The notes under the pieces were generated by a model that had not been told where the DNA came from, made no database searches, and was given only the letters and a program-made list of their open reading frames with translations. Shown here one piece after another: positions 2,789 through 39,700 of a stretch of 64,000 bases of DNA (positions within the stretch are counted from its first letter, which is position 1; the number at the start of each line of letters is the position of its first letter). The stretch is from Yuukianura sp. NJ FZ-2021. Taxonomy: Eukaryota. Made by a program: the position numbers and the translations under genes. The DNA lies in contig CM102288.1 of assembly GCA_046563655.1 (NCBI GenBank), positions 3,162,001-3,226,000 of the forward strand, read 5' to 3'.

Positions 2789-3507
2789 TTACGCTGGAGG
2801 TGGCTCAAGTCCATCGGGGTCAAAGGTGACCAGTTCAGTTTCCATGTCCGTGGTAGCTGTAGTAGTGACTTCAGCAAGCTCTGTAGCAAACTCTTCAGCT
2901 GATGCTGATGTCGCCGTACCTTCTACAAGGTCTTCTGGAGCAACAGCTTGCGTGGTCGTCTCGTTCTCCGGGTAGGCCGATGTCGTTTCCCTTGGTTCAT
3001 CTATGATTGCTTTTCCTTTTGCTGTTTTCAATCCGAGTCGTTTGATATAGATAGGCTCTTTTGCCACTAGAGGACCGTCCTTCACTTGAAGGTCCTTCAC
3101 TGGAGAATCATGGACCCGTGTGCCAAACGTATCATAGTCACCAAAGTCAACATCACGCCTTCCTGAAATAGATCTCAGAGACGCTGGAGGAGCAGCTACC
3201 AAGACTGGTGAATGCTCCACAGATCCACTTTGAAAATCCAATGATGGTCCAGGTAGGTCAAACAGTTGTCGCTGACCTTGTCGTTGTGCTGGTTGAACTT
3301 TAGATTCTAAAGATTGCTTTTCATTTTGCAGATCTTCACTGCTAGTCTCTTCTCTTGCAAATCTTGTCCTACCTGCCAAGTAATTGGAGTAATTAAGATT
3401 TGCCAAAGTGATAAGGAAGTGCACTAAAACTTGGCAATTGGCTTACCTTGGACTTGATCGTGATTCAAAATTGCGCAAAGTAGGAGGAGAAGTATCCTTG
3501 AATCCAT
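2789..3507 (-). CDS. Small secreted protein with an acidic, Thr-rich (mucin-like) C-terminus, 2 exons
   Basis: Exon 1 (3507-3447) encodes the signal peptide MDSRILLLLLCAILNHDQVQ. A GT-AG phase-1 intron (3446-3373) leads to exon 2, G-RTRFAREETSSED...DPDGLEPPPA*. RFAR is a possible furin site. Confidence 0.7.
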
Positions 3508-4583: not shown

Positions 4584-4870
4584 GTTAAAAAAAACACTTA
4601 TGCTTGTTAGTACTTTTTGATTTTATGTCAAGTTTCATCAAGATCAAAATAGTCAGATGGCTATTTCGATGTTTCATGAATTTATGATTGACATGCCAAA
4701 CCTTTTGTTCCTATCAATTTTAAGTTGTCACTTCTGCATAAATACTCCGCCCATGGCGTGTCATTTCTGCTCCGGATTTCGAGTCAGGGATAGCTTTTGT
4801 TTTACTTTGTAAAACAAGGTTTTCGAAACAAAGTTGACACAAAAGACTAGCGAGGCATTTTTTTTATGAA

Positions 4871-7827
4871 ATGGGCTCTGCCACTTTCTTATTGGTAATG
4901 TTACGCAAAGCTGAATTAGTTTTTTAAGTTAATTTCATTTTCAGTTTTGGAAATTGCAGATTTGTTTGGGGCTGGTGCTGTCGACTTCTGGCCAGGATTT
5001 ACCGACAGTTTACGAATATTTTACTGCCGATGGGATTCAGACCGGATGGGAAGCTAATGGTCCCGGATTATTCAAGTATGTTTTCATAAAATGTTTTTCA
5101 AAATTGAAATTTTTTCAAATTTTCCCCACAATTTTCAGTTTTTTTAAAAAAATTTTTAGGTTGAATGGACGCGACATTCGGATAATCAGTGGAGCTTTGC
5201 ATTACTTTCGCGTTCATCCATCTCTCTGGAGAGATCGGCTCAAGAAGCTGCGAGCTGCTGGACTCAATACAGTAGAAACATACGTTCCTTGGAATCTCCA
5301 TGAACCGAGGATTGGCCAATTTGATTTCGGAGATGGCGGAAACGATTTTTCCCCATTTTTGAATGTGCGGAAATTTATTCAAATGGCCCAAGAAGAGGAT
5401 TTGCTTGTACTTTTCCGACCAGGCCCATACATTTGCTCAGAATGGGAGTTTGGTGGTTTCCCAAGGTTGGATTTTTCAAAAATTTAAAAATTCAAATGAA
5501 AAATTCAGCTCTATTGATTACTCAACTTGTTTTTATAGTTGGCTTCTGCGTGACCCTAACATGAAAGTTCGTACGTCATATCAACCGTTTCTCGACTACG
5601 TCACGGCCTACTTCGATGCACTCTTACCACAAGTTGCCGATTTACAATTTACAAATGGCGGACCAATCATTGGCATTCAGGTACAAGCACAAAATTTTGA
5701 AAAACTTGGAAGTTTGTTTAGAGTTTTATGAAATTCGATATTGCTTGCGGTTTAGATCGAGAATGAATACGGTTCGTTTTATCCGATACACAAATCGTAC
5801 TTGGAGCATATCAAAAATGCTTACGACAGGCACGGTTTTACTGGTCTTCAATTCACTTCTGACGGAGCCTACAATGGAGCCGACGGTGCTCTTCCAGAAC
5901 TCGGTGTTCTCATGACTGCCAATTTCCAGGGAGATCCAAAAAGCAACCTGGACAGACTTCTAGAAGAGCAGCCTGACAAGCCCACGATGGTCATGGAGTA
6001 CTGGAGTGGTTGGTTTGATCATTGGTTTGAAGAGCACCACACAGTTTCCGTGGAAGGTAAAAATCTGGACAACAATTACCGCATTTCCTCGACTACAACA
6101 CGCACTCGTATAAAACGACTATAAGACGCATTCTTGTATAATACGCACCCCAAAATTCTCAAAGTGATTAGCATATTAAGATCAAAACCGTTTAAAGTAG
6201 TTTAGCACATTTGCAATTCTTACAAATTTTTAGCAAAACCCTTCAGTTTTCAGCGAAAAGAAATGTTTTCTCTTCCAATTTTTTCTTTCTTCATTTCTCA
6301 GATAAGATGCGTCTTATAGTCGGGGAAATACAGTAACAAATTTTCAGTGTTTTTGAAATTGTTAGATCGTTTCGTTTTTTGATTTCCAGACTTCGGGGAG
6401 TGGCTCGAAGGAATCTTTACACACAGTCAAACATCAGTGAACTTCTACATGTTCCACGGTGGAACCAACTTTGGGTTCATGAATGGAGCAAATCGAATCA
6501 TTACATATACTCCGGATATCACTAGCTATGGTACGTTCCTCAGTCTAATTCGAACTTGCAATTTTTCGTAGCTTGAGCTCTGACCTTTCCTTATCAGACT
6601 ACGATGCACCTCTGTCCGAAGCTGGAGACTACACGGAAAAGTTCTACAAGGCAATGGAGCTGATCCGACAATACGAAATTCCGCAACTATTTCACCCAGA
6701 ACTGCCTGAACCAACTCAAAAAATTGCTTATCCAACTACCGATGTCACACACTACTTGACCTTCCCTGACATTCTGGGTCAAATTCCTTCTTCGTCAAAG
6801 TTTGAATCCGAGAGAGTGATGACCATGGAACTGTTGGACATGAACGATGGAAGTGGTCAAGGTCACGGCTATATTGTGTATGAAACCACCGTTGAATTTA
6901 CAGAGTTGACGGGAACTTTGACGGTGAGGGTTTGAAAAAATGAAATATTTTTTATGAAAAACTGAAATTTCTGATCCAATTTTCAGGTTCATTCTCCTGT
7001 CCATGACTTTGGAATTATTTTGTTGGATGATGAAATTGTGGGCGATCACACTGGAAACAGGACAGATTACTGGATGACAAGGTAAGAAATCATAAATCCA
7101 TTCAATTTGAAAACTGCATATGGAATGTGTCTGTTTTGTAGAAAGAACAAAGTTAACCTCACCGTCACCTCACTTGGATCTCACCGAATTGCAATCGTTG
7201 TGGAGAATATGGGACGTGTCAATTTTGGATACGAAGAGGACTTTGAACAGCACAAGGGACTCACCGGAGAGTTGTCATTCAATGACCAAGAAATTACGGG
7301 TTTCACAATTTATGCTGCTGAATTCAAACAGAGCTGGGTGGAAGGGTACAATTTTTAAAAATTTGCAACACTTTTGAATATTTTATGATAAAAAAAAACT
7401 CTGAATGAACTTTATTTTTAAACAGACTTACGAACTGGAGAACAATTGAAACTGGCGAGACAGTATCAGGTCCAGCAGTATTTCAAACAACACTGACGCT
7501 TGCGCAGGATCCCGTTGCTGATACCTTTTTGGACATGAGAAATTGGCACAAGGGAATTGTGTTTATAAACGGATTTAACTTGGGACGATACTTCAAAGTT
7601 GGTCCGCAGCAGACTCTGTACCTTCCAGCACCGTTTCTACATGCTGGAGAAAATACGGTAAATCACATGACAAATGAAAATTCGAGACATTTGAAAAGTT
7701 CAATGAACTTTTGGAAATATTTTAAATTTTTCTTGTATTTCAGATTACAATTTTTGAGCAATTGGAACCAAGTACTGAAGTTCGATTTACCGATACACCA
7801 ATTCTTGCATGCACCGGTTGTATCTAA
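4871..7827 (+). CDS. Beta-galactosidase, glycoside hydrolase family 35 (GLB1-like), multi-exon, with signal peptide
   Basis: Motifs [58 protein letters not shown] (acid/base Glu), [11 protein letters not shown] (nucleophile Glu), [61 protein letters not shown]. Stop TAA7827. Confidence 0.97.
6079..6333. mobile_element. Tc1/mariner-pogo (Tc2-like) MITE in a beta-galactosidase intron
   Basis: TA|ccgcatttcctcgactacaacacgc ... gcgtcttatagtcggggaaatacag|TA gives imperfect ~25-bp TIRs, TA flanks and an internal copy of cgactataagacgca. It explains why this intron is unusually long. Confidence 0.85.
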
Positions 7828-13139: not shown

Positions 13140-16100
13140 TTACAGCACATAGTCCAACTCGAATCGTCTGAATTCATTCTTGGCTTCACTTGGAACTCTG
13201 GGATACCCCATGACCAACGCATCCTGTCCACCAATGTACAACGAATTGTAAATTTTCCAGTACACATCTCGCACTTTCCGTGCTGGATGAAACAGACCCT
13301 GAAAAAACAAAGAAACAAAACAATTATTGATTCACGCTTGACATAACATCTCCCACTTCCCATAAAAAATCGAGAAAAACAGACCTTCAAATCCTGGACA
13401 TATGCGTGACTAATTGTTATTTGTTAGATGCATGACTAATTGTAGAAACTAAAAAAAATCCATACCTGTAACGTATACTGAAGGACTTTGACCGGCCCAA
13501 GTGAAACTCTCATTCCTTCTACAGCATCCATGAATGCCTGAACCAAATGTGGCGACGTCTCGAAGATATTTGGCCAAACATAGTTCAGTAGATGAACCAA
13601 AGCATCCTCACATCCAAATCCATACACTCCCAGCGCCATGTGCTTGATCGCTGCACAAGATGTTTGTCTATGGACAAGGTCACGGTCCATGAGAGCATCT
13701 TCCAGAAGTGGCGTGACAGCATAGATGTAGTCCTTCCCCATTTCGCCAATGTACTCAAACAGAAACGACAGCGATTTCAGTACTCCATTCTGAACATTCA
13801 ATTCTGGAACTCTGTATTCGTTCATAAGAGCCGGAAGGACCGTAAAAGGTGAACAAGTTTCAGCCACAATTGCAATGGCCACAGTAGTACAAACGCGGTT
13901 TTGACGTTCCTGGACTTTCAAGTTGTTCAAAAGTGTTGCCAGTACATCATGTGGTCCAATTGCTTTTGCAATGTATCCAAACGTATTGACTGTTGCTCTT
14001 CGAATGGCTTTCTTATGTGCTTTGAGTAATTCCAGCAGCTCAAAGCAAATTCGCATCCACTCACGTGCTGAAACATACTCCGGTCCACGATCGGCAATTC
14101 GCCCTACAAGATCAATACAGTTCTCTTGAACCTTCTCATGTCGATTCTTCAGAATTGGAGTGAGACGGGGCAGGAGGTCTTTGATTGGTGGAGTCATCTT
14201 GGTCATTCCAATGACATTGACAATGGCCTTCAGGGCTCCAAGGATACTTCCAAGTACTTCGGGATACTCTTCTCCCAAGTACTCATACAGAACGACTCCC
14301 AAGTGACCCATCAACTTCTCCTCTTGACAAATCTTCATCACTGCAGCGATTTTGGAAATGAGGTCAGCCGCTTGTTGCCGAACTTTGGCTGCTTTGTTGT
14401 TCAAACGCCACAGAATTGTTCCACAGATCTGTGGTAGGTAAGCCTTGACTCGCTTGCCCAGCTGATTGACAATAGTGCCAAATCCATTGAGCAGAACGAT
14501 ATCCTGTAAGATAACAAACTTAATCAATTAGTTCTCACAATTAACAAATTAGTTGTCACGATTAAGCAATTTTGAAGTTAAATTTTTTAAATCGGGAATT
14601 AAAAACGTACCTCTGTCGTTTGTTCCTGAAAAGCATACAGAATTCCATCGATCAGCTGTTCTTCCAACCGTGAATCAATATCCGCTGCTCCTAAATTTCC
14701 CATAGTTTTTTCAATCGTTTCGACGACCATTTTCCGGTAAGTTTCGTTTTCATCTTTCAAATCATCCACCACTCTATTGATAATTTCCGAAACTCCAACT
14801 TTATTTGCAATTTCCACTGTTGTGTCCACAAGTTGTCGGTAGTTCCTCTTGTCCAGAGCCATTCGATGATTCCAAAAGTGTCGAAAGAAGTGCGGCAGGA
14901 TTTCATCCTTGATGTACTGCGGTTCTACTCCATCAGTTGCACAACACTGCTTCACAACTTTCAGAACAATTTTCTTCATCTCTTCATCAGGAGACTGAAA
15001 CTCTCGAATCAGGATCAACATAACTTCCTTCGTGTAGTAACTCGCATATTCAGCATCCATAAGTGGAATCAAGTATCCAATGGCTTTTAAAAATGCTGCC
15101 AACCCTTTACCACGATGTGACCGAATTCCCTTCCATAGTGGTTTGAGAACAGAATCGAAACTTTCAATTCCATAAGGAGTAGCGGCTTCCGCGAGAGCAG
15201 CAATTGCCAAAGCAGTGATCGTTCTTACTTTTTGCTGCTCGTCGACCAATCCATGTTCGATAATTTCCACCAAGCTCTTTAAATGTGGTAAAATTGCACA
15301 CCCCATCAAAATTGAAATTTGTTGAACAATTTTGATTCCAGTATGTCTTGCTTGCCATGACTTTTTACTTTTACATACAGCTTTGAGAAATGGTAGTAGA
15401 GATGGAATTCCAAGTGCAGAAGCGACGACAGCAAATGCTCGAGCAGTCGTATTTCGAACGAATTCGTCAATATTGTCAATATCCGGTCTCATCGTGGAAA
15501 TCATTGTAGCAAGTCCAGCAGCCTTGGCCAAGTTTGAAATAATTTCACGACCTTCGACACGAGCATAGTAGTCTTCATCAATCAGTAGAGGTTCAATAAC
15601 AACAAGGATTTTGTGTACATAAGGCCTAACCAGGTCGTCCAACTTGTACAGAACGCGGTCAATGACCTTGACCAGAAGATGACGTTCTTGATCTTCCAGT
15701 GTAGGCGACATGAGGAGCGGCAGAATTTGATTAAAAAGTGGTCCAGCTCCAAACTCCCTTGCCTTGTCAGTAATTTGCCGAAGTGCTGATTTTCGCATTG
15801 GTGGCGTTCCGTTCTTGATTTTCAACAAAAGTTTCATAATTTTTCGTTCTCGTTGTTCTTCAGGACTCAGTGATTCTTCATCAACATCCAGCAGCAATTT
15901 ATCAAAGTACTGGGCGTCTTCTGGTTTTAAAAAAGGAAGATTGGCTTCTTTCGGTTGTGTTTCCATGAACTTTCCAGCCTTTTCTTCCTGTTGAATAAAG
16001 AATCCCTGGGGAGTTCCAGCAATTGGTGTTGGAGTGGCTGCTAATTTCCGAGCTGGTGTCCGGATTGGAATGTAGCCAGCAGGCGGTGGCAACACTTTGT

Positions 16101-18817
16101 AGCCTGGTGGAAACATTTGATCCAGTTCATCGTCAGCCAACGGACGATTCCTATCATCAATTTCTTTTTCCCAGCGATAGGCCTGTAGTTGCTCTGGAGT
16201 CATCTGCAGCAGTTGACTTGGAGAAGGAGTGGCCATGGCCATTGCTTTAGCTCCTATAGGCGTTGATCCTCCAGGGGTCATCAACATGCTCATACTTGGC
16301 GTATGAGGAGTCATGCTTGGTGTGGCTGGAGTTGATGGTGTCATGGCCACTGCTGGCGTTTCATCCCAACGACTTTTGCGCTTACTGGCTGATGGAGTAG
16401 GCGTATCTTGGATAATATCAACTTCAGTTCTATGAACTTTCGGAGTTTCAGCCCATCCACTGTTATGTCCCGGCGTTTCTCGTTCAGTTTTAGGAGTTTC
16501 ATCCCAACGATTTCTTCTAGCGGATGCTCCAATGTGTCCAGGAGTGGCATGGCCTGGTGTCATGGCATGTGCTGGAGTGGGATCCCATTGTTGAAAGCCA
16601 GGAGTTACTCCTGGAGTTTCACTTCCAAGCGGTTTGTGTCCAGGCGTTTCATCCCAACCAGTGTGGCCTGGAGTCTGAAACAGACAAAGAAACATTAACA
16701 ATTAACATTATGTAGTTAGAAAAACTGTCAGTATAATTACTGCTTCCAACTCACTTCAGCATCCCAAGAAGGCTTCTTTTTCGCTGGAGCCAAATTTTCA
16801 TCAGCTGTCGGCTGCTGTTGATCCCATCGACCGCGCTTCTTCGTGGCTGCTGCAACGGCGGCCGTTTGCTCACCGTTTGTAATAGCAGCTTTCAGCGTTC
16901 CATCTTTGGATTTCTCAACCAGTCTCCGCCGAAACTGCATTGCATAAAAACGTTAGTCAAAATTACATTAATGGCACAGAATTGTTAGAAGCCTTGGCAA
17001 ATTGACTTACGTCACTTTCTTGTGATCGGAGTTGCTGTTCACGCATAACATCCACGTAAGTCCGGGCTCCGACATCCGGGGTTTTCCCACCTTTTTGGAA
17101 CAAAAAATAAAAAGAACAAATTAGAAACGCTGAACTTTGTCTTTATAATGCCTAATCTCAAAACTAAAAAAATCAGCTCCTGAAGCATCATCTCGACAGT
17201 CGACTATTCCTGAAAACGTTACCCGCGTCTTCCAATTCTGTCACTAAGCAAGTTAGTTTTTTTTTAACGTGGAAAAGTTTGAACTTTAGATTGAAAAAAT
17301 GACAAAATTGGAAGAATTTTGTCCCGTATCGGTCATCCTTCCAATCAGTTGCTGGGTATTGTCTAGAAATCATTTGCGATTAGTAAGATTCGTGTAATCA
17401 TTCATACGATCTTTCATTCAAGTGAAGGTATAGAGATTTCAAAATCCATTGTTTACGCAGAAAAGTTCTCTGTTCTATTGAAAACGGTTAAAATTAACGG
17501 CGAAAAGGTGAAATTTCTCGAGAGTAACGCAAGATTTTGAAATCTTTCTTTACATTTTGAAAATTTGAAAAATCGCTGATCCGTGGGCTGAACTACGGCG
17601 AGGACATTGTAGCTTCCCATGAGTTCGTGGACTCTTACCTTCGTAGATGAGAGTAAGACAGCATAACGATTTAGCCTCTCATCCTATCATCATCGCAATC
17701 CCATCTAAAAGATCAGCTCAGCAGTTTCTCTACATTTCATTTTCACAAATCTGAAAAGGAGGGTCAGATTGGCTTTTAGAATCAAAGACAGAGTGGAAAC
17801 ATTGGTGATGACAGTGGGCCCTTACAACGAAATACCCCGACAGACTCAATCCACTTACATTGGCACTTCCGCAGCCATGGCCACTTAGGTTGTCGATCCA
17901 CATTGCAAGGAAACCTAGTGGGAGTGGTTCCTTATGAATCATTTCCTATTCAATTAGCTGTCAAAAGTGGTCAGTAGTAAACATTCGCTGACCAGCTCCA
18001 GCTGATTGACATAACACGTATACCACAATCACACATTCCAAACACACACAATTCATAAACCCATCATCATAACTTTTAAAAAACTACCAAGACATTTGTA
18101 CCGATTTTGCGTAGGTTTGAACTTACCGTCAAGAAATTCGTCAAATCTTTCGGGCGAAATGACCCGCTTTTGTGCTCTTTGAAGGTATTCATTTCCGGAC
18201 TGTCGTTCCATAATCGTCTGCCTCTTGTGCTCCGCAAATGGATCATGATCCTTGTCGGCCTGTTGAAATATAATGTAAATGGGATAAATAAAAGTTCCTA
18301 GTTTAATAGAGCTAAATCTTTTGTAGTACCTGAGGGATATCGTTGAGTATTGAAAGCGGTGCTGAATAATTTTTGCCTTTGACCGGTCCGACAGGAGCAG
18401 CATCAACATCATCCTCCTAATAAAGTAAGTAAAATAATTCATATTAACTTTACTTACACAAACACCACACCCAATTCAATTAAATTAGTACTAATAGTAA
18501 GTTGTTAAGTTGGTCTTACGTACCTCAACGTCATCATTTGGAGCAATTGTGGTGTAGTATCCGTCAAACTTGCTGTTAGATCCATAAATATCCAGGTCAA
18601 ACTTTCCCTTCTCATTGAATCCGATTCTGTTTTCTTCAGGAACGTCCAACTCTTGTTTCTTTTTTCCTTGCATCTGGGTCGCCAGTGCCTCGATTTCTAG
18701 GAATAAGAGCCGATTAATAAGAATGACGTTTTTACTGTACTGTCACACTTAACTTTTGAAAGTATTGAGCTGAAGCTGACTGAACTTACCTTCCTTAGTT
18801 TTAGGAGCCCCTGCCAT
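13140..18817 (-). CDS. SF3B1: Splicing factor 3B subunit 1 (SAP155), multi-exon
   Basis: [22 protein letters not shown] start, RWDETP ULM repeats, many TP sites, [12 protein letters not shown] p14-binding region, HEAT repeats ([49 protein letters not shown]), and the C-terminus [18 protein letters not shown]...RFELDYVL*. Confidence 0.99.
17223..17237 (-). other. Candidate 15-nt in-frame micro-exon, or stop-containing extended exon, in the long SF3B1 intron
   Basis: ACTAAC branch motif, then ttgcttagtgacag|AATTGGAAGACGCGG|gtaacg. It adds ELEDA in frame, or reads on to [16 protein letters not shown] if the donor is missed. Confidence 0.45.
17639..17704 (-). other. Candidate 66-nt poison exon in the long SF3B1 intron
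   Basis: gctgatcttttag|ATGGGATTGCGATGATGATAGGATGA...CGAAG|gtaagag has a near-consensus donor. In the incoming phase 1 it reads DGIAMMIG*. A second acceptor (ctgaccctccttttcag|17750) gives DL*. Confidence 0.7.
17859..17957 (-). other. Candidate 99-nt poison exon in the long SF3B1 intron
   Basis: tactgac branch motif, cacttttgacag|CTAATTGA...GCCAAT|gtaagt. In phase 1 it reads A-N-stop. An alternative donor gtaagg lies at about 17825. Confidence 0.65.
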
Positions 18818-19588: not shown

Positions 19589-20647
19589 TTAGGTGTCAAT
19601 GGTTGTGGTGGGGCTAGTTGATTGTTCAGCATCACCATCAGCAGCGATTGACGATTCTGCTTGTTCTGCAACGACTCCAGACCCGTCTTCTTCTCGAGCT
19701 GCAGGCGTTTCTCGTCCCCCGCCGTCACTTTGGTCGCCATCTTCATCCTCCGAATCCTTGAGCTGCTTGGCTTTTTGCAACTTTCTTCCCTGTTCCAATT
19801 CCAAATCGCTTCCGTCATCTGAAGAATACGTGTGTCCGGATGTACCACCACCTTTCTTGTATCGGTTTTTAATTGCTGCAAGGCTGATGGAATTGCCATC
19901 TTCGGAGTACTCGTCATTCAAGTAGGACGCACTCAATATGCCCTTAGCTCCTTGTTCTCGAATGCGTCGCTGCTGATTTTCTCTACGCGTTGCAGCCCTG
20001 TGCTTGTCTTCTTCTTTCTTGATCAAAGCTCGACGTAGAGCAATCGGATCCATTCCACCAGCCGAAAAAGGATTAAAGATGAACTTGATTCCACGCACTT
20101 TTGAATTTTGATCGACGATGGACTTGGTCATCCTCTGATGAGTGACGGATTCAGTCGACTGTGGGCGGAACGTCAACTTGGAACGAAAGACAGCTTGACC
20201 TTGGAGACCCATGCCTTCTTTCACGAACAAATGGTTGTGGTCATCATGAAGTGACTGTTTCTCGACATCGAATACTTCGTCACCGAGATGAAGACTTAGA
20301 GAACCGTCGGACCATCTGACGAAGCGAGCATTGGATTCCTTAACGAAGGCCCCCTTCTCATTGAAACGCTCACGCCAGCGAATGGTATTCTGTACTTTGA
20401 GTTTCAGTTTTTGATTTCCCTCGTCATCCAGAATTTCTTCATCGTCAATTTCATCTTCGTAAGTCTGAGGGTCAAATGGACGAGTGTCTACAGACAAGAA
20501 GTTCGGTAATTTGACGAAATGGATTCCTCTCCCTAGATCCACCGAAATTTTGGGAACTTCCACACCAATACGAGTTTCCTCTTCTTGTTTTACGGGTTCA
20601 GCCGGTGGTTCGTGGATGTCGTTGGGACTTTCCATGTTCACCGACAT
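19589..20647 (-). CDS. LEO1: RNA polymerase-associated protein LEO1 homolog (PAF1 complex); intronless CDS lacking the usual long acidic N-terminus
   Basis: Leo1 domain FVKLPNFLSVDTRPFDPQTYEDEIDDEEILDDEG..KLKVQNTIRWR..ESNARFVRWSDGSLSLHLGDEVFDV..DHNHLF..GLQGQAVFRSKLTFRPQSTES.TH, plus ISLAAIKNRYK. The first in-frame ATG is at 20647, just after an acceptor at 20659. Confidence 0.92.
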   Translation of the reverse strand: MSVNMESPNDIHEPPAEPVKQEEETRIGVEVPKISVDLGRGIHFVKLPNFLSVDTRPFDPQTYEDEIDDEEILDDEGNQKLKLKVQNTIRWRERFNEKGAFVKESNARFVRWSDGSLSLHLGDEVFDVEKQSLHDDHNHLFVKEGMGLQGQAVFRSKLTFRPQSTESVTHQRMTKSIVDQNSKVRGIKFIFNPFSAGGMDPIALRRALIKKEEDKHRAATRRENQQRRIREQGAKGILSASYLNDEYSEDGNSISLAAIKNRYKKGGGTSGHTYSSDDGSDLELEQGRKLQKAKQLKDSEDEDGDQSDGGGRETPAAREEDGSGVVAEQAESSIAADGDAEQSTSPTTTIDT

Positions 20648-21377
20648 GAGTACTGGTTCTATAGTTAAAAATCCGTTAGTCAATCCGGTCACAGGTCAAT
20701 GTCAAAGATACGAAACAGAAACCGGATACCGGAAGGAAGGAACGTGGTATGCCAGTCTCGCGAATTTGCCGCGCAGAACGTTGGAGCAGACGAGCTGTGA
20801 CAAAGGTAACATGCCAATCAGCAAGCTTTGTGATAACATTACTTACATTATGATAAATTCAATCAAATTCCTGTAATGGAATGCAAAGTTTAATTATTTG
20901 TTAATTGTTAAACATCAATTATTCAAGTCAATAATTCTTTAAGTTTATATGTAATTAACTTATAACTGTTAGTGAATTGTGATGACCATCACTGCATCAT
21001 TTTCTGAGCATGGGTGACACTAGGCTATAGAGTAACTTTTATAGAGTCTAACCGAGTCATGTGTTTACCCGCGAAGTTGCATCATTTCAACATTCGGTTC
21101 TTTTTTTTTGTGAGTGAGTGAGTGTGCTTTTTTTATTCTGTTCGATTACACCGCCTTTTATGCTGCTGAAGTTAGTTGGTGAGTTCTTGATTAATTGCTA
21201 ATTGATTTAGATTGCGGGAGGAGTAAAGGTAATGTAAATTGATTCTGACATTATCCTGCATGGTGTGTTACACATGTACTTTGGCTGATTGATAAACTTG
21301 ACTGATTTGTTTTCAGAATTCAGAGTTGAAAGTTCTCATATCAATCAAGGAAATTTCATTGACCCGACGGAAGGAAA

Positions 21378-22869
21378 ATGGCACAAAGTAAGCTAAATGA
21401 CCTCGCTGGAAAGTTCGGAGGGGGCCGGGGACTGGGCATAGGTCTCAAGTTTGCTGCTGTTGCTGGAGCTGCACTTTACGGAATCAGTCAATCGATGTAC
21501 ACAGGCGAGTAGATTTGTTATAATTGTTCCCTGAATGATAAAGAAGAAGTTGGTTGATCATGGTTTTGTTTTGTTTAATTAGTTGAGGGAGGTCAACGAG
21601 CTATCATCTTCAGTAGGATCGGTGGTGTTCAGGATGATATCTACACAGAAGGACTTCATTTCCGAATACCGTGGTTTCAGTATCCTATTATCTATGACAT
21701 CCGTTCTCGTCCAAGGAAGATTTCTTCACCTACAGGAAGCAAAGACTTGCAAATGGTGAACATTTCTCTTCGAGTTCTTTCCAGGCCAGACGCTCTGCAG
21801 TTACCAACAGTTTACCGTCAACTTGGACCAGACTATGACGAAAAAGTGTTGCCTTCCATTTGTAACGAAGTGCTCAAAAGTGTCGTTGCAAAGTTCAATG
21901 CCTCTCAACTTATTACCCAAAGACAACAGGTACTATTCAATTACTTTATAGTTACGTTATACTCTGTTGTTTTTGTCTTACTAAACAGTATCATTTCTAG
22001 GTGTCACTTCTAGTTCGTCGTCAATTGACAGAACGAGCTCGTGACTTTAACATGATCCTCGATGATGTGTCCATTACTGAACTCAGTTTTGGTAAAGAGT
22101 ACACCGCAGCTGTTGAAGCCAAGCAAGTTGCACAGCAGGAAGCTCAGCGAGCTGCTTTTGTCGTTGATCGTGCAATTCAGGAAAAGCAACAGAAGATTGT
22201 ACACGCTGAGGGAGAAGCCCAGGCTGCAAAAATGGTAATTCCAAAGTCAATTAATTAACTTTAACTATTTCTTTCGTTGATATGATGAGAAACCAGAACT
22301 GACTGCCCGGTTACCTCCCAATGTAAATCTTGATGAGGAGAAACAGATTAACCTTTCCTCATTTTAAATGCAGTGGAATATGAAATCGAAGGGTGAACTA
22401 TTGGTCAACTTCTGTTACTCAGAAAATTTACTTTTATTTCACCTGACCGCTATCAGATTGATCATCAATCACCGATGTTCTGCAGTTTTAGAACAATTTG
22501 GTTCGTATAGCGGTAACATCTCTTTTTTTTTTTAAACACGGTAGAGGTAATTGGGCTAAGATGGCGTTCTTTAGTAATCTGATCACAATCTGAACTGAAA
22601 GTGATTTTTTTCCGAATCAGTTTCTCTATTTAAATCGTTTTCCGTGATTTTTGTAATTGTAGTTGGGAGAGGCACTTAGCACGAATCCTGGTTACTTAAA
22701 ATTGAGGAAGATTCGAGCAGCACAAGGCATTGCCCGAACAGTTTCTCAGTCGCAGAACAAGTTGTACTTGAGTGGCAACACTTTGATGCTGAACATCAAC
22801 GATACTGAGTTTGATGAAACTATGGAGCGACTCGGTGGAGATCCAAGAAAGAAGAAAGCACATTTCTAG
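21378..22869 (+). CDS. PHB2: Prohibitin-2, 4 coding exons, first coding intron GC-AG
   Basis: [24 protein letters not shown]..., [105 protein letters not shown]. Confidence 0.99.
22277..22587 (+). ncRNA. U85-type composite box C/D-H/ACA scaRNA guiding U5 snRNA modification, in the last PHB2 intron
   Basis: C box ATGATGA 22282-88; D' CTGA 22299-302; a 13-bp stem gcccggttacctc/gaggtaattgggc enclosing the H/ACA domain; a hairpin followed by H box ATATGA 22378-83; hairpin accgctat/atagcggt followed by ACA 22516-18; TCTTTAGTAA (antisense to U5 UUACUAAAGA) then D box CTGA 22579-82. Confidence 0.9.
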
Positions 22870-36700: not shown

Positions 36701-39700
36701 GTGTCATTCCCCTGCAAAAAAAATGCATTTCAAAATTTTCATCATTTCAACATTTCTCATCATTTTCTAAGCAATTTTCGAAAATTCTCATCTTCAGAAT
36801 TTCAATTTTTACCTCAATTTCTTAAATTCCTCCAAAATTCCAATCTCCACCTCTTCATTCTGTTCTTCGAAAAAACGAAATTCCGAGACGAATGCGGGTG
36901 TATGAATCTCTTCTTCGTAGTCTCCGGCCTCCGCTGGACAAAAATCCAAACAATTATTACAAAACACCCCACAAAACTAAAGTTTCACAGTTAAACTTTA
37001 ACTCAGACATCAAACCCAAATCAGTGAAAAATGTCAAAGTGCTTACACTGAATACACAGTGCTGCCAGTTCAATGGAAGTTTGGAGCGGTGGTTGCAACT
37101 TCCCAGTGAGCACATCTTGCTTAATTTGTAAAAAGAACTGATACCTGTAAACCAAAAGACAAAAAACTTAATTAGTTAAACCATTAAGCCTTAATTTATT
37201 AATTCACACGTTTTCGTCACCTCCCTCCCATTGCATAACATTCACTAATAACTGCCCAATCACTTTCTGGCACCACAAAGCCCCATTTAACTCCATCTTT
37301 TAATGTCATTACGCTGCAACTTAAATCCTTTGTTACTTTCTCCCTCGTCATTGTCTAAATGATCAACGACAATTAAAATGTGGCGTCTCAGAGCAGTCAC
37401 TCTGCACACAATAGTCGCAATCTGTGCAAAAATCTTGCGCAGATTTCATATCAAAAGTTAAAATCAACGTTAATTCTTCAAAATCATCATCATCTGCTGT
37501 TTCCACATGCGCAAAACGTAAGTCAAAGAAATTCTCCAAGTTGTCTCCCAGCACATTTTCGCATCCTGTTTTGCCAATTCTCACCTCGTCAATTCCTCTC
37601 GGAGATTATGAGGTTCAGATGAATAGAATTTCACCTTCAGTCTAAAAGTAAATGGAGGCCCAACTGCAAATAAAAAAAAAAGAAAATCCAACAATTAAAA
37701 ATCTCACAAAACTAATTTTATCTTATCACCCACCCACACACATTTAAAAAATTCACACAACTCAAAAAAACAAGTAAAATTTTCACATCCTGTTTAATTA
37801 TCATCTTAAACCCAATTCCCCTGCAACTTTCATCGGAAATTAATCCAAATCCATTTGAAAATCTAGATACAACTTTCTTCCACAAAACTTTTAAAGCTCG
37901 ACGCCATCCAGCAAACTTCTTCTCACCAGCTCCTATTTTTTAAATTTTCAACGTAAGATATGACAGGCCAACTTTCGCAGTTTCTAAAAAAAAATTATTT
38001 TGCTAATTTCTGTGTTTACGTGTAAGTTTAACTAGTTAAAAACCACAAACCGTAGTGCCAAAATCGCAATTTTTTGCATTCAAAAAAAAATTCATCGTAT
38101 TTTTCAAGGCCTCCGGGGGTCCTGGCACCGTAAAATCTTTGCAAATCGTAAAGCACCGAGGAAGCAACCGTACACTTCCTCGTCTGTCTGTTCGCCTCTG
38201 CATTTTCCTCCTGGCTCCAAGATTTATTGCAAATTCAAATCCAATCGTATTGGAAGTATCGTAACACACCAAATTTCTACACAAAGAAGGATTGGCAACA
38301 AAATACCCTATCATCCACATCCTCTCAAATTCAAGATTCATCCCTGCCAGGAGCTCATACTGCTTCTACATCTACTCAACCCTCCAACACCTCACCAATA
38401 AGTTTTACACATATTTTGCACATTTAAGTACGTTGAATCTTCATCTTGCACGTTTTGCACGTTGAATCTTGCTTCTTCTTCCCTGGTCAACGTCCTCCAC
38501 CAACTTTAAAACAACTCCGCCCAGTCACTTCCCAATCATAAATTAATTGATCCCTCACACTTTACATCTAAGAAACATTTAACCGCACTGCTCAACATCC
38601 AACTTCACTCGCAGAAAAATCCAACTTAACAAAAATGCAAAATCCAACTTCAAAAAAATTATGCAAAATCCAACTTCAAATTTGGCAAACCCCCTCAAAC
38701 CTAACACAACCCGGTAAAAAATCACACCTAAGTACAGTTATCTTCAATAAAAATATTCTTTGATAACTTTTTGCCTTAAATTCAGGTTTAGAAAAATGTA
38801 AGGTCAAGTTGTCAGTTAAACTTTGCGTCAACGTCAAAGCCCGGAGGAAGTTGTCACATACCTTGCATTTTCCTAATCTTAAACTTCCTCGCAAATTAGT
38901 CGAATTCGCTGTGCAAAATTACCCCACACCGTACACAAACAGAAAGTTGCGGAAGCCATTTCCCGGGGCGGTGGCGCCGGAATTCAAAATTCACAAGTCA
39001 CGTTAATTCTCACGCCAACATTCGAACATTCTACAATCTCCGCTCGCTACTTCTCAAGCATCCTACCCATCATCCTCCGAGGTCAACATGACAATGTCCG
39101 TGGCCTTCCCGTGACATTTCAAATGTCACTCCGCCCTCAAATGTCTAATCGTTACCATTTTGAAAATCACAAGGAAACGACATAACAATACCCAAAATCT
39201 ACCTCATCATCTCTCATTATAAAGATCCACCAAGAGGAACCAAAACTGCCAAACGCAAAAAAATCAAAAAGCAAAAAACGTCCTCCAGGACTAACAAATT
39301 CAACAAAGCAAGAAAGTAACAAGAAAAAAAATGAAGCCGAATAGGTTCCTCATCTTAATTTTTTGCATCTGCCTCTCCTGCATCTCTTGCCATTAGAAAG
39401 GAAACAAGTTTCCTGCTCCCGGCAGTTGATTCCAATGACCAACCGAAACGAATCTGAATATGCAGACACTAAATCCCACAAACACCACAAAAGAAGTCAC
39501 ACAAAAGAATTCCTCTACCGAATTCTCCCTTCCCAGGAAATAACAAAAGAAAATAGCATATTTCTTATTATAATCCGCCGAAATGCATGCAACCAAAGGC
39601 ACCGAAGTGCGTAAAGAAAGTAACAAAAAATGACAGAGACAAGGGCGGATACTTTTCAACTTTTCTTTCATTTGCAACGGAAGTGGCATATGATACACAT

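Follow-up and report, generated by a model that had tools for sequence, protein, structure and literature searches.

The third coding intron of the prohibitin-2 gene (PHB2) in a stretch of Yuukianura sp. NJ FZ-2021 DNA encodes, with a probability that we put at roughly 0.88, an intron-borne composite box C/D-H/ACA small Cajal body-specific RNA (scaRNA) of the U85 type (SCARNA10; scaRNA:MeU5-C46 in Drosophila) at positions 22277-22587 of the plus strand. The stretch, hereafter the window, comprises 64,000 nucleotides (nt) of assembly GCA_046563655.1 (contig CM102288.1, positions 3,162,001 to 3,226,000 of the forward strand), and its own numbering is used below. An initial annotation made from the sequence had proposed a U85-like composite scaRNA in this intron, and the proposal was supported by the architecture of the element, its pairing with U5 small nuclear RNA (snRNA), a homologue in the same intron of a second PHB2 locus (L023, on a metagenome contig) and contigs from an RNA library. 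U85 is a rare type of guide RNA that combines both modification machineries, and it acts on the exon-holding loop of U5. The same annotation had described it as the guide for 2'-O-methylation of C45 (Cm45) and pseudouridylation of U46 (Psi46) in U5; this is confirmed in PMC5733568, which presents U85 as a compound C/D-H/ACA guide for both modifications, verified in human and Xenopus.

The elements had been read in the order C, D', stem, hairpin, H, hairpins, ACA, stem, D, and every one of them was found, at the following positions (cmscan denotes covariance-model searches against Rfam):

22277-22587, plus strand: predicted composite C/D-H/ACA scaRNA of the U85 type, about 308-311 nt (cmscan, fold, RNA contigs)
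22279-22281 with 22583-22585, plus strand: terminal stem, UGA/UCA, with one unpaired base before the C box (read from the sequence)
22282-22288, plus strand: C box, AUGAUGA, identical in L023 at 4747-4753
22299-22302, plus strand: D' box, CUGA, kept in L023, where the bases upstream of D' are not conserved
22304-22316, plus strand: 5' strand of the closing stem (Stem I), GCCCGGUUACCUC, pairing with 22544-22556
22318-22376, plus strand: 5' H/ACA hairpin with the pseudouridylation pocket (fold); its apical loop, 22342-22353, holds ACAG
22378-22383, plus strand: H box, AUAUGA, aligned by cmscan to the H box of the model
22391-22444, plus strand: hairpin A, an additional hairpin after the H box and before the 3' hairpin (seen when either the window or the L023 RNA is folded)
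22446-22514, plus strand: hairpin B, the 3' H/ACA hairpin (folds; the L023 hairpin ends 1 nt before an ACA)
22516-22518, plus strand: ACA box, with AACA aligned and identical in L023
22544-22556, plus strand: 3' strand of the closing stem (Stem I), GAGGUAAUUGGGC, forming a 13-bp duplex of -22.8 kcal/mol
22558-22564, plus strand: C'-like box, AAGAUGG (AUGAUGG in L023), which starts a shared 26-nt block, GATGGCGTTCTTTAGTAATCTGATCA
22568-22577, plus strand: antisense element, UCUUUAGUAA, followed by one U and then the D box
22579-22582, plus strand: D box, CUGA (sequence and cmscan)

The layout is that of U85. The C box (RUGAUGA) and the D box (CUGA) are joined by a short terminal stem, whose register is the same in L023 (AUGA/UCAU), and the H/ACA domain lies between D' and C' and is closed by a long stem of 13 bp (12 bp in L023). 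Both an H box of the form ANANNA (AUAUGA) and an ACA are present, and a U-rich linker separates the ACA box from the 3' strand of the closing stem. The 311-nt RNA folded with a minimum free energy (MFE) of -86.4 kcal/mol (z = -3.85), and one of 100 shuffled sequences was as stable. In its own alignment cmscan drew a single long 3' hairpin (UGAACUA/UGGUUCG) with AUA in place of ACA. This was rejected as the main model because L023 has hairpin A at that place, in unrelated sequence, and because AACA is the conserved, aligned box.

Pairing with U5 was computed using positions 37-57 from the supplement of PMC6984369, a vertebrate sequence from which the organism's own U5 may differ. The antisense element forms 10 consecutive Watson-Crick pairs with U5 42-51. 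Within this duplex the G at the fifth base upstream of box D lies opposite C45, as the initial annotation had said, and U85 positions C45 in the same way. The duplex reached -10.6 kcal/mol compared to -2.5 ± 1.5 for shuffled elements, with 1 of 2000 shuffles equalling it. The 15-nt pattern made up of the antisense element and box D occurred once in the window, compared to 0.05 occurrences expected with at most one mismatch (5 of 100 shuffles matched).

Metagenome contigs were scanned with PHB2 exon 2, giving 80 loci, and both exons flanking the host intron were matched in 72 of these. The flanking exons abut with no intron in 70 of the 72, most of them cDNA-like contigs, and a further locus (L022) has 133 spare bases between them, too few for an RNA of this kind. 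L023 has a 481-nt intron (4677-5157) exactly between AAKM and LGEA, as in the window, and its PHB2 protein is 84-88% identical to that of the window, exon by exon. The intron gave two matches to the Rfam snoU85 model (15.6 and 16.5 bits). The C box, the D' box, the pocket strand UGUAAAUCUUG and AACA are identical in the two RNAs, and the 26-nt block that runs from the C'-like box through the antisense element to the D box is identical as well. The sequences of the closing stem and of the upper stem of the 5' hairpin differ with their pairing kept, and the closing-stem duplex of L023 was computed at -21.2 kcal/mol compared to -22.8 kcal/mol for the window. RNAalifold run on both sequences gave 42 pairs, of which 13 are retained despite a change on each side, including pairs in the closing stem and in the upper stem of the 5' hairpin, and the separate folds showed the same domain order with hairpin A included. 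Judged from the sequences, frozen guides and boxes, covarying stems and a free remainder make up the pattern that a functional U85 would be predicted to leave: both guide elements, the boxes and the closing stem are constrained, and hairpins A and B and the linker are free. No snoU85 match was found in the 12 other genomic PHB2 loci scanned (L020, L022, L027, L071, L036, L070, L072, L073, L074, L076, L077 and L078; cDNA-like loci were left out), which come from more distant taxa or lack the intron. Hairpin A itself (22391-22444 in the window, 4859-4901 in L023) is of unrelated sequence in the two RNAs and does not occur in the Rfam consensus structure of U85.

RNA evidence came from one metatranscriptome run (X1; 9% of sampled words). 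Outside the contigs described next, the intron was uncovered in this run, as were exons 3 and 4; a part without cover was taken as no evidence and gives no argument that the RNA is more stable than its flanks. Three contigs of this run (22305-22428, 22399-22574 and 22399-22565), 95-99% alike to the window, fall entirely within the predicted RNA and jointly span 22305-22574; the run also holds a spliced PHB2 contig. The contigs differ from the window at 13 positions, which lie in loops, in hairpin B and in the linker. None of the 13 is among the 95 covered positions of boxes, guide strands, closing stem and 5' hairpin stems, an avoidance with P = 0.0036 under a uniform spread in a post hoc test. 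These contigs are a hint of a stable RNA, not proof of one.

The second predicted guide is the pocket of the 5' hairpin. Its 5' strand, AAAUCUU (22325-22331), makes 7 pairs with U5 48-54 (counted by hand). In its 3' strand, UUAAA (22364-22368), the last four bases (UAAA, 22365-22368) pair with U5 41-44 and the first U faces C45, so that the pocket leaves U46 and A47 of U5 unpaired, with 14 nt from the top of the 3' strand to the H box. In L023 the 3' strand is GUAAG and the pocket makes 7 + 5 pairs with G opposite C45, compared to 7 + 4 pairs in the window; the window's pseudouridylation arm is weaker than that of L023 because U, not G, faces C45. The geometry fits Psi46, and the activity of the window's form appears unsure. 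It is conceivable, though improbable, that in the lineage of the window the RNA guides methylation only, with the H/ACA domain serving stability and Cajal-body targeting and Psi46 made by another guide or absent. The four pairs of UUAAA and the U facing C45, where L023 and the Rfam consensus have GUAAG/GUAAGG, point in this direction, as does a yeast experiment in PMC5733568, where one of the two Xenopus U85 copies, although well paired, produced Cm45 alone. Against it, the whole hairpin has been retained, together with its stems, the 7-pair 5' strand and the distance of 14 nt to the H box, and the pocket is unchanged in the RNA-library contig. The 11 pairs in total also fall within the range of working guides.

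The initial annotation had looked to the covariance models for confirmation, and their answer was divided. The Rfam snoU85 model (RF01296) was matched end to end, with model positions 1-329 aligned at exactly 22277-22587, but the score of 19.3 bits lies below the gathering score of 41, an operational cut-off rather than a biological criterion. The E-value was 0.0043 over the 601 bases searched, and the match had the lowest E-value among the six sub-threshold Rfam matches in the window. Agreement was greatest at the C box, at the pocket strand UGUAAAUCUUG and at UCUUUAGUAAUCUGAU. The model was presumably built from vertebrate and fly sequences, Drosophila U85 included. The covariance model alone does not establish the RNA.

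A number of points weigh against a U85-type scaRNA at this position. The model score is less than half of the gathering score, its E-value rises to 0.46 at the scale of the whole window, and no Rfam match reached its gathering threshold anywhere in the window. The pairing was computed against a vertebrate loop sequence and leans on a U5 loop that is, to our knowledge, invariant. The 3' pocket strand has just 4 pairs, with a U-C mismatch beside the target, and the covariation is drawn from two sequences only. The hinge of L023, AUUAAA, does not fit ANANNA. A CAB box (ugAG) in an apical loop is required for localisation to Cajal bodies, and the canonical UGAG was found in no apical loop of either RNA; the loops hold ACAG (window) and GGAG (L023) instead, both of which precede A(U/A)UAA, and the copies of UGAG in the window RNA lie only within the C box and within a stem. 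Variants in the RNA-library contigs break four MFE pairs of hairpin B (G180-C194, A199-U222, U202-A217 and C178-G229; by hand), and the fold of hairpin B is unsure because of these breaks; two of the variants, 22504 C>T and 22505 G>A, would keep pairs of the stem drawn by cmscan and would break one MFE pair. The expression evidence, finally, consists of contigs rather than reads from the metatranscriptome of a 95-99% similar organism, where carry-over of DNA is possible, and contigs cannot show the ends, size or strand of an RNA. Taken at their strongest, the sub-threshold score and the expression evidence that is not read-level would fit a chance resemblance, in which the intron is merely long and AT-rich and yields no stable RNA. 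We consider this very improbable, as the guide elements are identical and the stems covary in L023 at the same intron, the fold has a z-score of -3.85, the complement to U5 is unique in the window, and the RNA-library contigs lie inside the element.

As a U85-type RNA, and by analogy with known intronic small nucleolar RNAs (snoRNAs), the scaRNA would be transcribed within the pre-mRNA of prohibitin-2, from which splicing of intron 3 and trimming by exonucleases would free it. C/D core proteins would assemble on its C/D ends, and H/ACA proteins on the H/ACA domain between D' and the C'-like box. The antisense element, placed on U5 loop 1 (42-51), would select C45 (human numbering) for 2'-O-methylation, and the pocket of the 5' hairpin, placed on U5 48-54 and 41-44, would select U46 for pseudouridylation.

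Four known systems were compared with the window RNA. Human U85 (SCARNA10) has the same order of elements and, according to PMC5733568, the same two targets (U5 Cm45 and Psi46) as predicted here. The antisense sequence before box D is almost alike (UCUUUGGUAAUCUGA in the snoU85 consensus compared to UCUUUAGUAAUCUGA in the window), whereas the window RNA differs in its extra hairpin, its weaker 3' pocket strand and the lack of UGAG in the apical loops, and the host of human U85 is not PHB2 (hg18 chr12:6489649-6489978; supplement of PMC6984369). Drosophila U85 (scaRNA:MeU5-C46, CR32863, FBgn0043853), from another hexapod, is likewise a composite C/D-H/ACA RNA, of 316 nt compared to about 310 nt, and targets U5 C46 and U47 (PMC2063731). 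Its role as described in PMC2063731 and PMC4053861, in which the C of U5 loop 1 is methylated and the U beside it pseudouridylated, matches the one predicted for the window RNA; the two RNAs were likened by description, and the fly locus is on chr3R, not in Phb2. Human U89 (SCARNA12) shares a PHB2-intron host with the window RNA and guides U5 Psi46 (PMC10618143; PMC12995542), but its length is 270 nt and only Psi46 is described as its target, whereas the window RNA has an intact and conserved C45 element. The window RNA thus departs from U89, a guide for Psi46 alone of about 270 nt without a working C45 element, and on its sequence would therefore be classed with U85, not U89, from the intact conserved C45 element. 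We take snoU85 and SCARNA12 to belong to one Rfam clan, the output showing the clan number CL00082 only. In Xenopus tropicalis, scaRNA10a, scaRNA12 and scaRNA10b are family members that guide modification of C45 and/or U46 of U5, as is predicted for the window RNA.

A known family thus gains a member, which is a sound annotation and not a surprise. The RNA adds a divergent hexapod orthologue of U85 which scores too low to pass the threshold of the Rfam model. L023 supplies a second sequence, and the two could improve the snoU85 family model. Elsewhere in the window, 37427-37496 on the minus strand gave a weak match to the box C/D family snoZ7/snoR77 (24 bits compared to a gathering score of 43, E = 8), which may be a further intronic snoRNA or chance.

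The host gene and its introns are arranged as follows:

21378-22869, plus strand: PHB2, prohibitin-2, the host gene (Pfam Band_7, PDB chain match, RNA contig)
21378-21504, 21583-21929, 22001-22234 and 22663-22869, plus strand: PHB2 coding exons, the last with the stop codon
21505-21582, plus strand: PHB2 coding intron 1, 78 nt, GC-AG
21930-22000, plus strand: PHB2 coding intron 2, 71 nt
22235-22662, plus strand: PHB2 host intron 3, 428 nt, GT-AG, between codons ...AAKM and LGEA... (sequence and reading frames)
22640-22648, plus strand: branch-site-like TTCCGTGAT, with the AG of the 3' splice site 15 nt further on

Exons 2 and 3 matched Pfam Band_7, and the best matches of exon 2 in PDB were Prohibitin-2 chains (199 bits, E 1.4e-58; Prohibitin 1, 144 bits). 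The junction of exons 1 and 2 is spanned by a spliced RNA-library contig. The best named relatives of exon 2 were the springtails Allacma fusca (94%), Orchesella dallaii (93%) and Folsomia candida (92%), with insects at 90-93%. Alignment to Prohibitin-2 in PDB places the boundary between AAKM and LGEA at residues 237 and 238, and an intron at this boundary is also present in the PHB2 gene of L023. The scaRNA-bearing intron had been given as 428 bp and the other coding introns as about 70-80 bp, and our measurements of 428 nt compared to 78 and 71 nt agree.

The host introns of the window and L023 differ in type. That of L023 (4677-5157) is an AT-AC intron, starting with ATATCC and ending with AC, with TTCCTTAAT 11 nt before its end, and by the consensus for U12-type branch sites it would be a U12-type AT-AC intron. 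The host intron of the window is GT-AG, starting GTAATTCC, and carries TTCCGTGAT at a place that matches that of TTCCTTAAT in L023. TTCCGTGAT may be the remnant of a U12-type branch site, and the window intron looks like the product of a U12-to-U2 conversion in which the scaRNA was kept. In the fly, intron 3 of Phb2 (AT-AC, U12-type) is listed as orthologous to human PHB2 intron 5 (PMC2831892), and splicing of the AT-AC intron of fly Phb2 depends on U6atac (PMC2952598). If the host intron is this conserved U12-type intron, modification of U5 would be tied to minor-intron splicing.

The hosts of the known family members are mixed. The initial annotation had placed human SCARNA12/U89 in PHB2 and U85 in another host gene, and both statements hold: SCARNA12 is processed from a PHB2 intron (PMC10618143) given as 'intron-6' (PMC12995542), human SCARNA10 lies elsewhere on chr12 (PMC6984369), and a chicken homologue lies in NCAPD2 intron 3 (PMC2653536). 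It is thus confirmed that human SCARNA12 and the window RNA share a host at the level of the gene. SCARNA12 is at hg18 chr12:6946761-6947030 (supplement of PMC6984369), and the two human loci are 457 kb apart. The two Drosophila genes are on different chromosome arms, with scaRNA:MeU5-C46 at chr3R:7472906-7473222 and Phb2 on chr2R (supplement of PMC13228274), which refutes a placement of fly U85 in l(2)03709/Phb2. In Xenopus tropicalis (v9.1) a 4.4-kb cluster on chr7 (1658713-1663113, plus strand) has scaRNA12 (143 nt) flanked by scaRNA10a and scaRNA10b (PMC6984369), which suggests that U89 arose next to U85. A literature search of limited coverage turned up no paper placing an invertebrate U85 in PHB2.

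Two histories were weighed for the shared host. In the one that we favour slightly, U85-family guides move among highly expressed hosts and PHB2 was reached separately in the hexapod lineage and in that of mammalian U89. This agrees with the host differing by lineage, namely PHB2 in the window and L023, a chr3R site in Drosophila, NCAPD2 in chicken and two chr12 loci in human, and with the clustering of family members in Xenopus. It requires, however, that the same host gene was hit twice, no relocation event has been directly observed, and the list for chicken, from 2009, may lack some members. The other history, suggested in the initial annotation and held by us to be doubtful, has the U85/U89 family in a PHB2 intron of the bilaterian ancestor, with human SCARNA12 and the window RNA as relics and the NCAPD2 and Drosophila 3R sites as later moves. 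With thousands of genes available, the same host would hardly be hit by chance, the RNA has stayed in one PHB2 intron in the window and L023, whose PHB2 proteins are about 12-16% apart, and human SCARNA12, a guide for U5 Psi46, also comes from a PHB2 intron. An AT-AC U12-type PHB2 intron is moreover conserved between fly (intron 3) and human (intron 5) (PMC2831892), and the AT-AC intron of L023, at the third intron position of the window gene, may correspond to this ancient one. Read literally, the published numbers would place SCARNA12 in an intron (6) other than the U12-type one (5), although intron numbers vary from transcript to transcript. The Drosophila coordinates also stand against an ancestral PHB2 host, as do the one listed chicken U85/U89 homologue, in NCAPD2 intron 3 (PMC2653536, whose main text has neither PHB2 nor prohibitin), the Xenopus cluster, which is consistent with U89 having arisen locally from U85 within the vertebrates, and the absence of snoU85 matches from the 12 other genomic PHB2 loci, more distant or intron-lacking as these are. 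Were the PHB2 location ancestral, a rare link between a snoRNA and its host would have been kept across Bilateria. The most specific form of this history, in which the ancient U12-type PHB2 intron was the original home of U85/U89, retained in L023, converted in the window and left as a vertebrate relic in SCARNA12, is more unlikely still; if true, a guide for the sole snRNA common to both spliceosomes was released by minor-spliceosome splicing.

Just upstream of PHB2 in the window lie the genes for the splicing factor SF3B1 (13436-16701, minus strand) and the Paf1-complex subunit Leo1 (19589-20695, minus strand). The best named relative of the Leo1 protein was from a termite (61%), and in a quick tree the window protein sat on a long branch and grouped only with metagenome proteins. 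A tblastn search of L023 with the Leo1 protein of the window gave no match, so no synteny was seen. Among the other PHB2 loci, L036, whose PHB2 has no introns, carries a weak SCARNA7 match about 2.5 kb downstream of the gene (7213-7337, plus strand; 25.8 bits, gathering score 65, E = 0.026). Two related contigs from a more distant eukaryote, L070 and L072, carry a U4 snRNA gene (3158-3287 and 1862-1989; 75.9 and 74.7 bits compared to a gathering score of 46) about 700 nt upstream of their match to exon 2 in an intronless PHB2.

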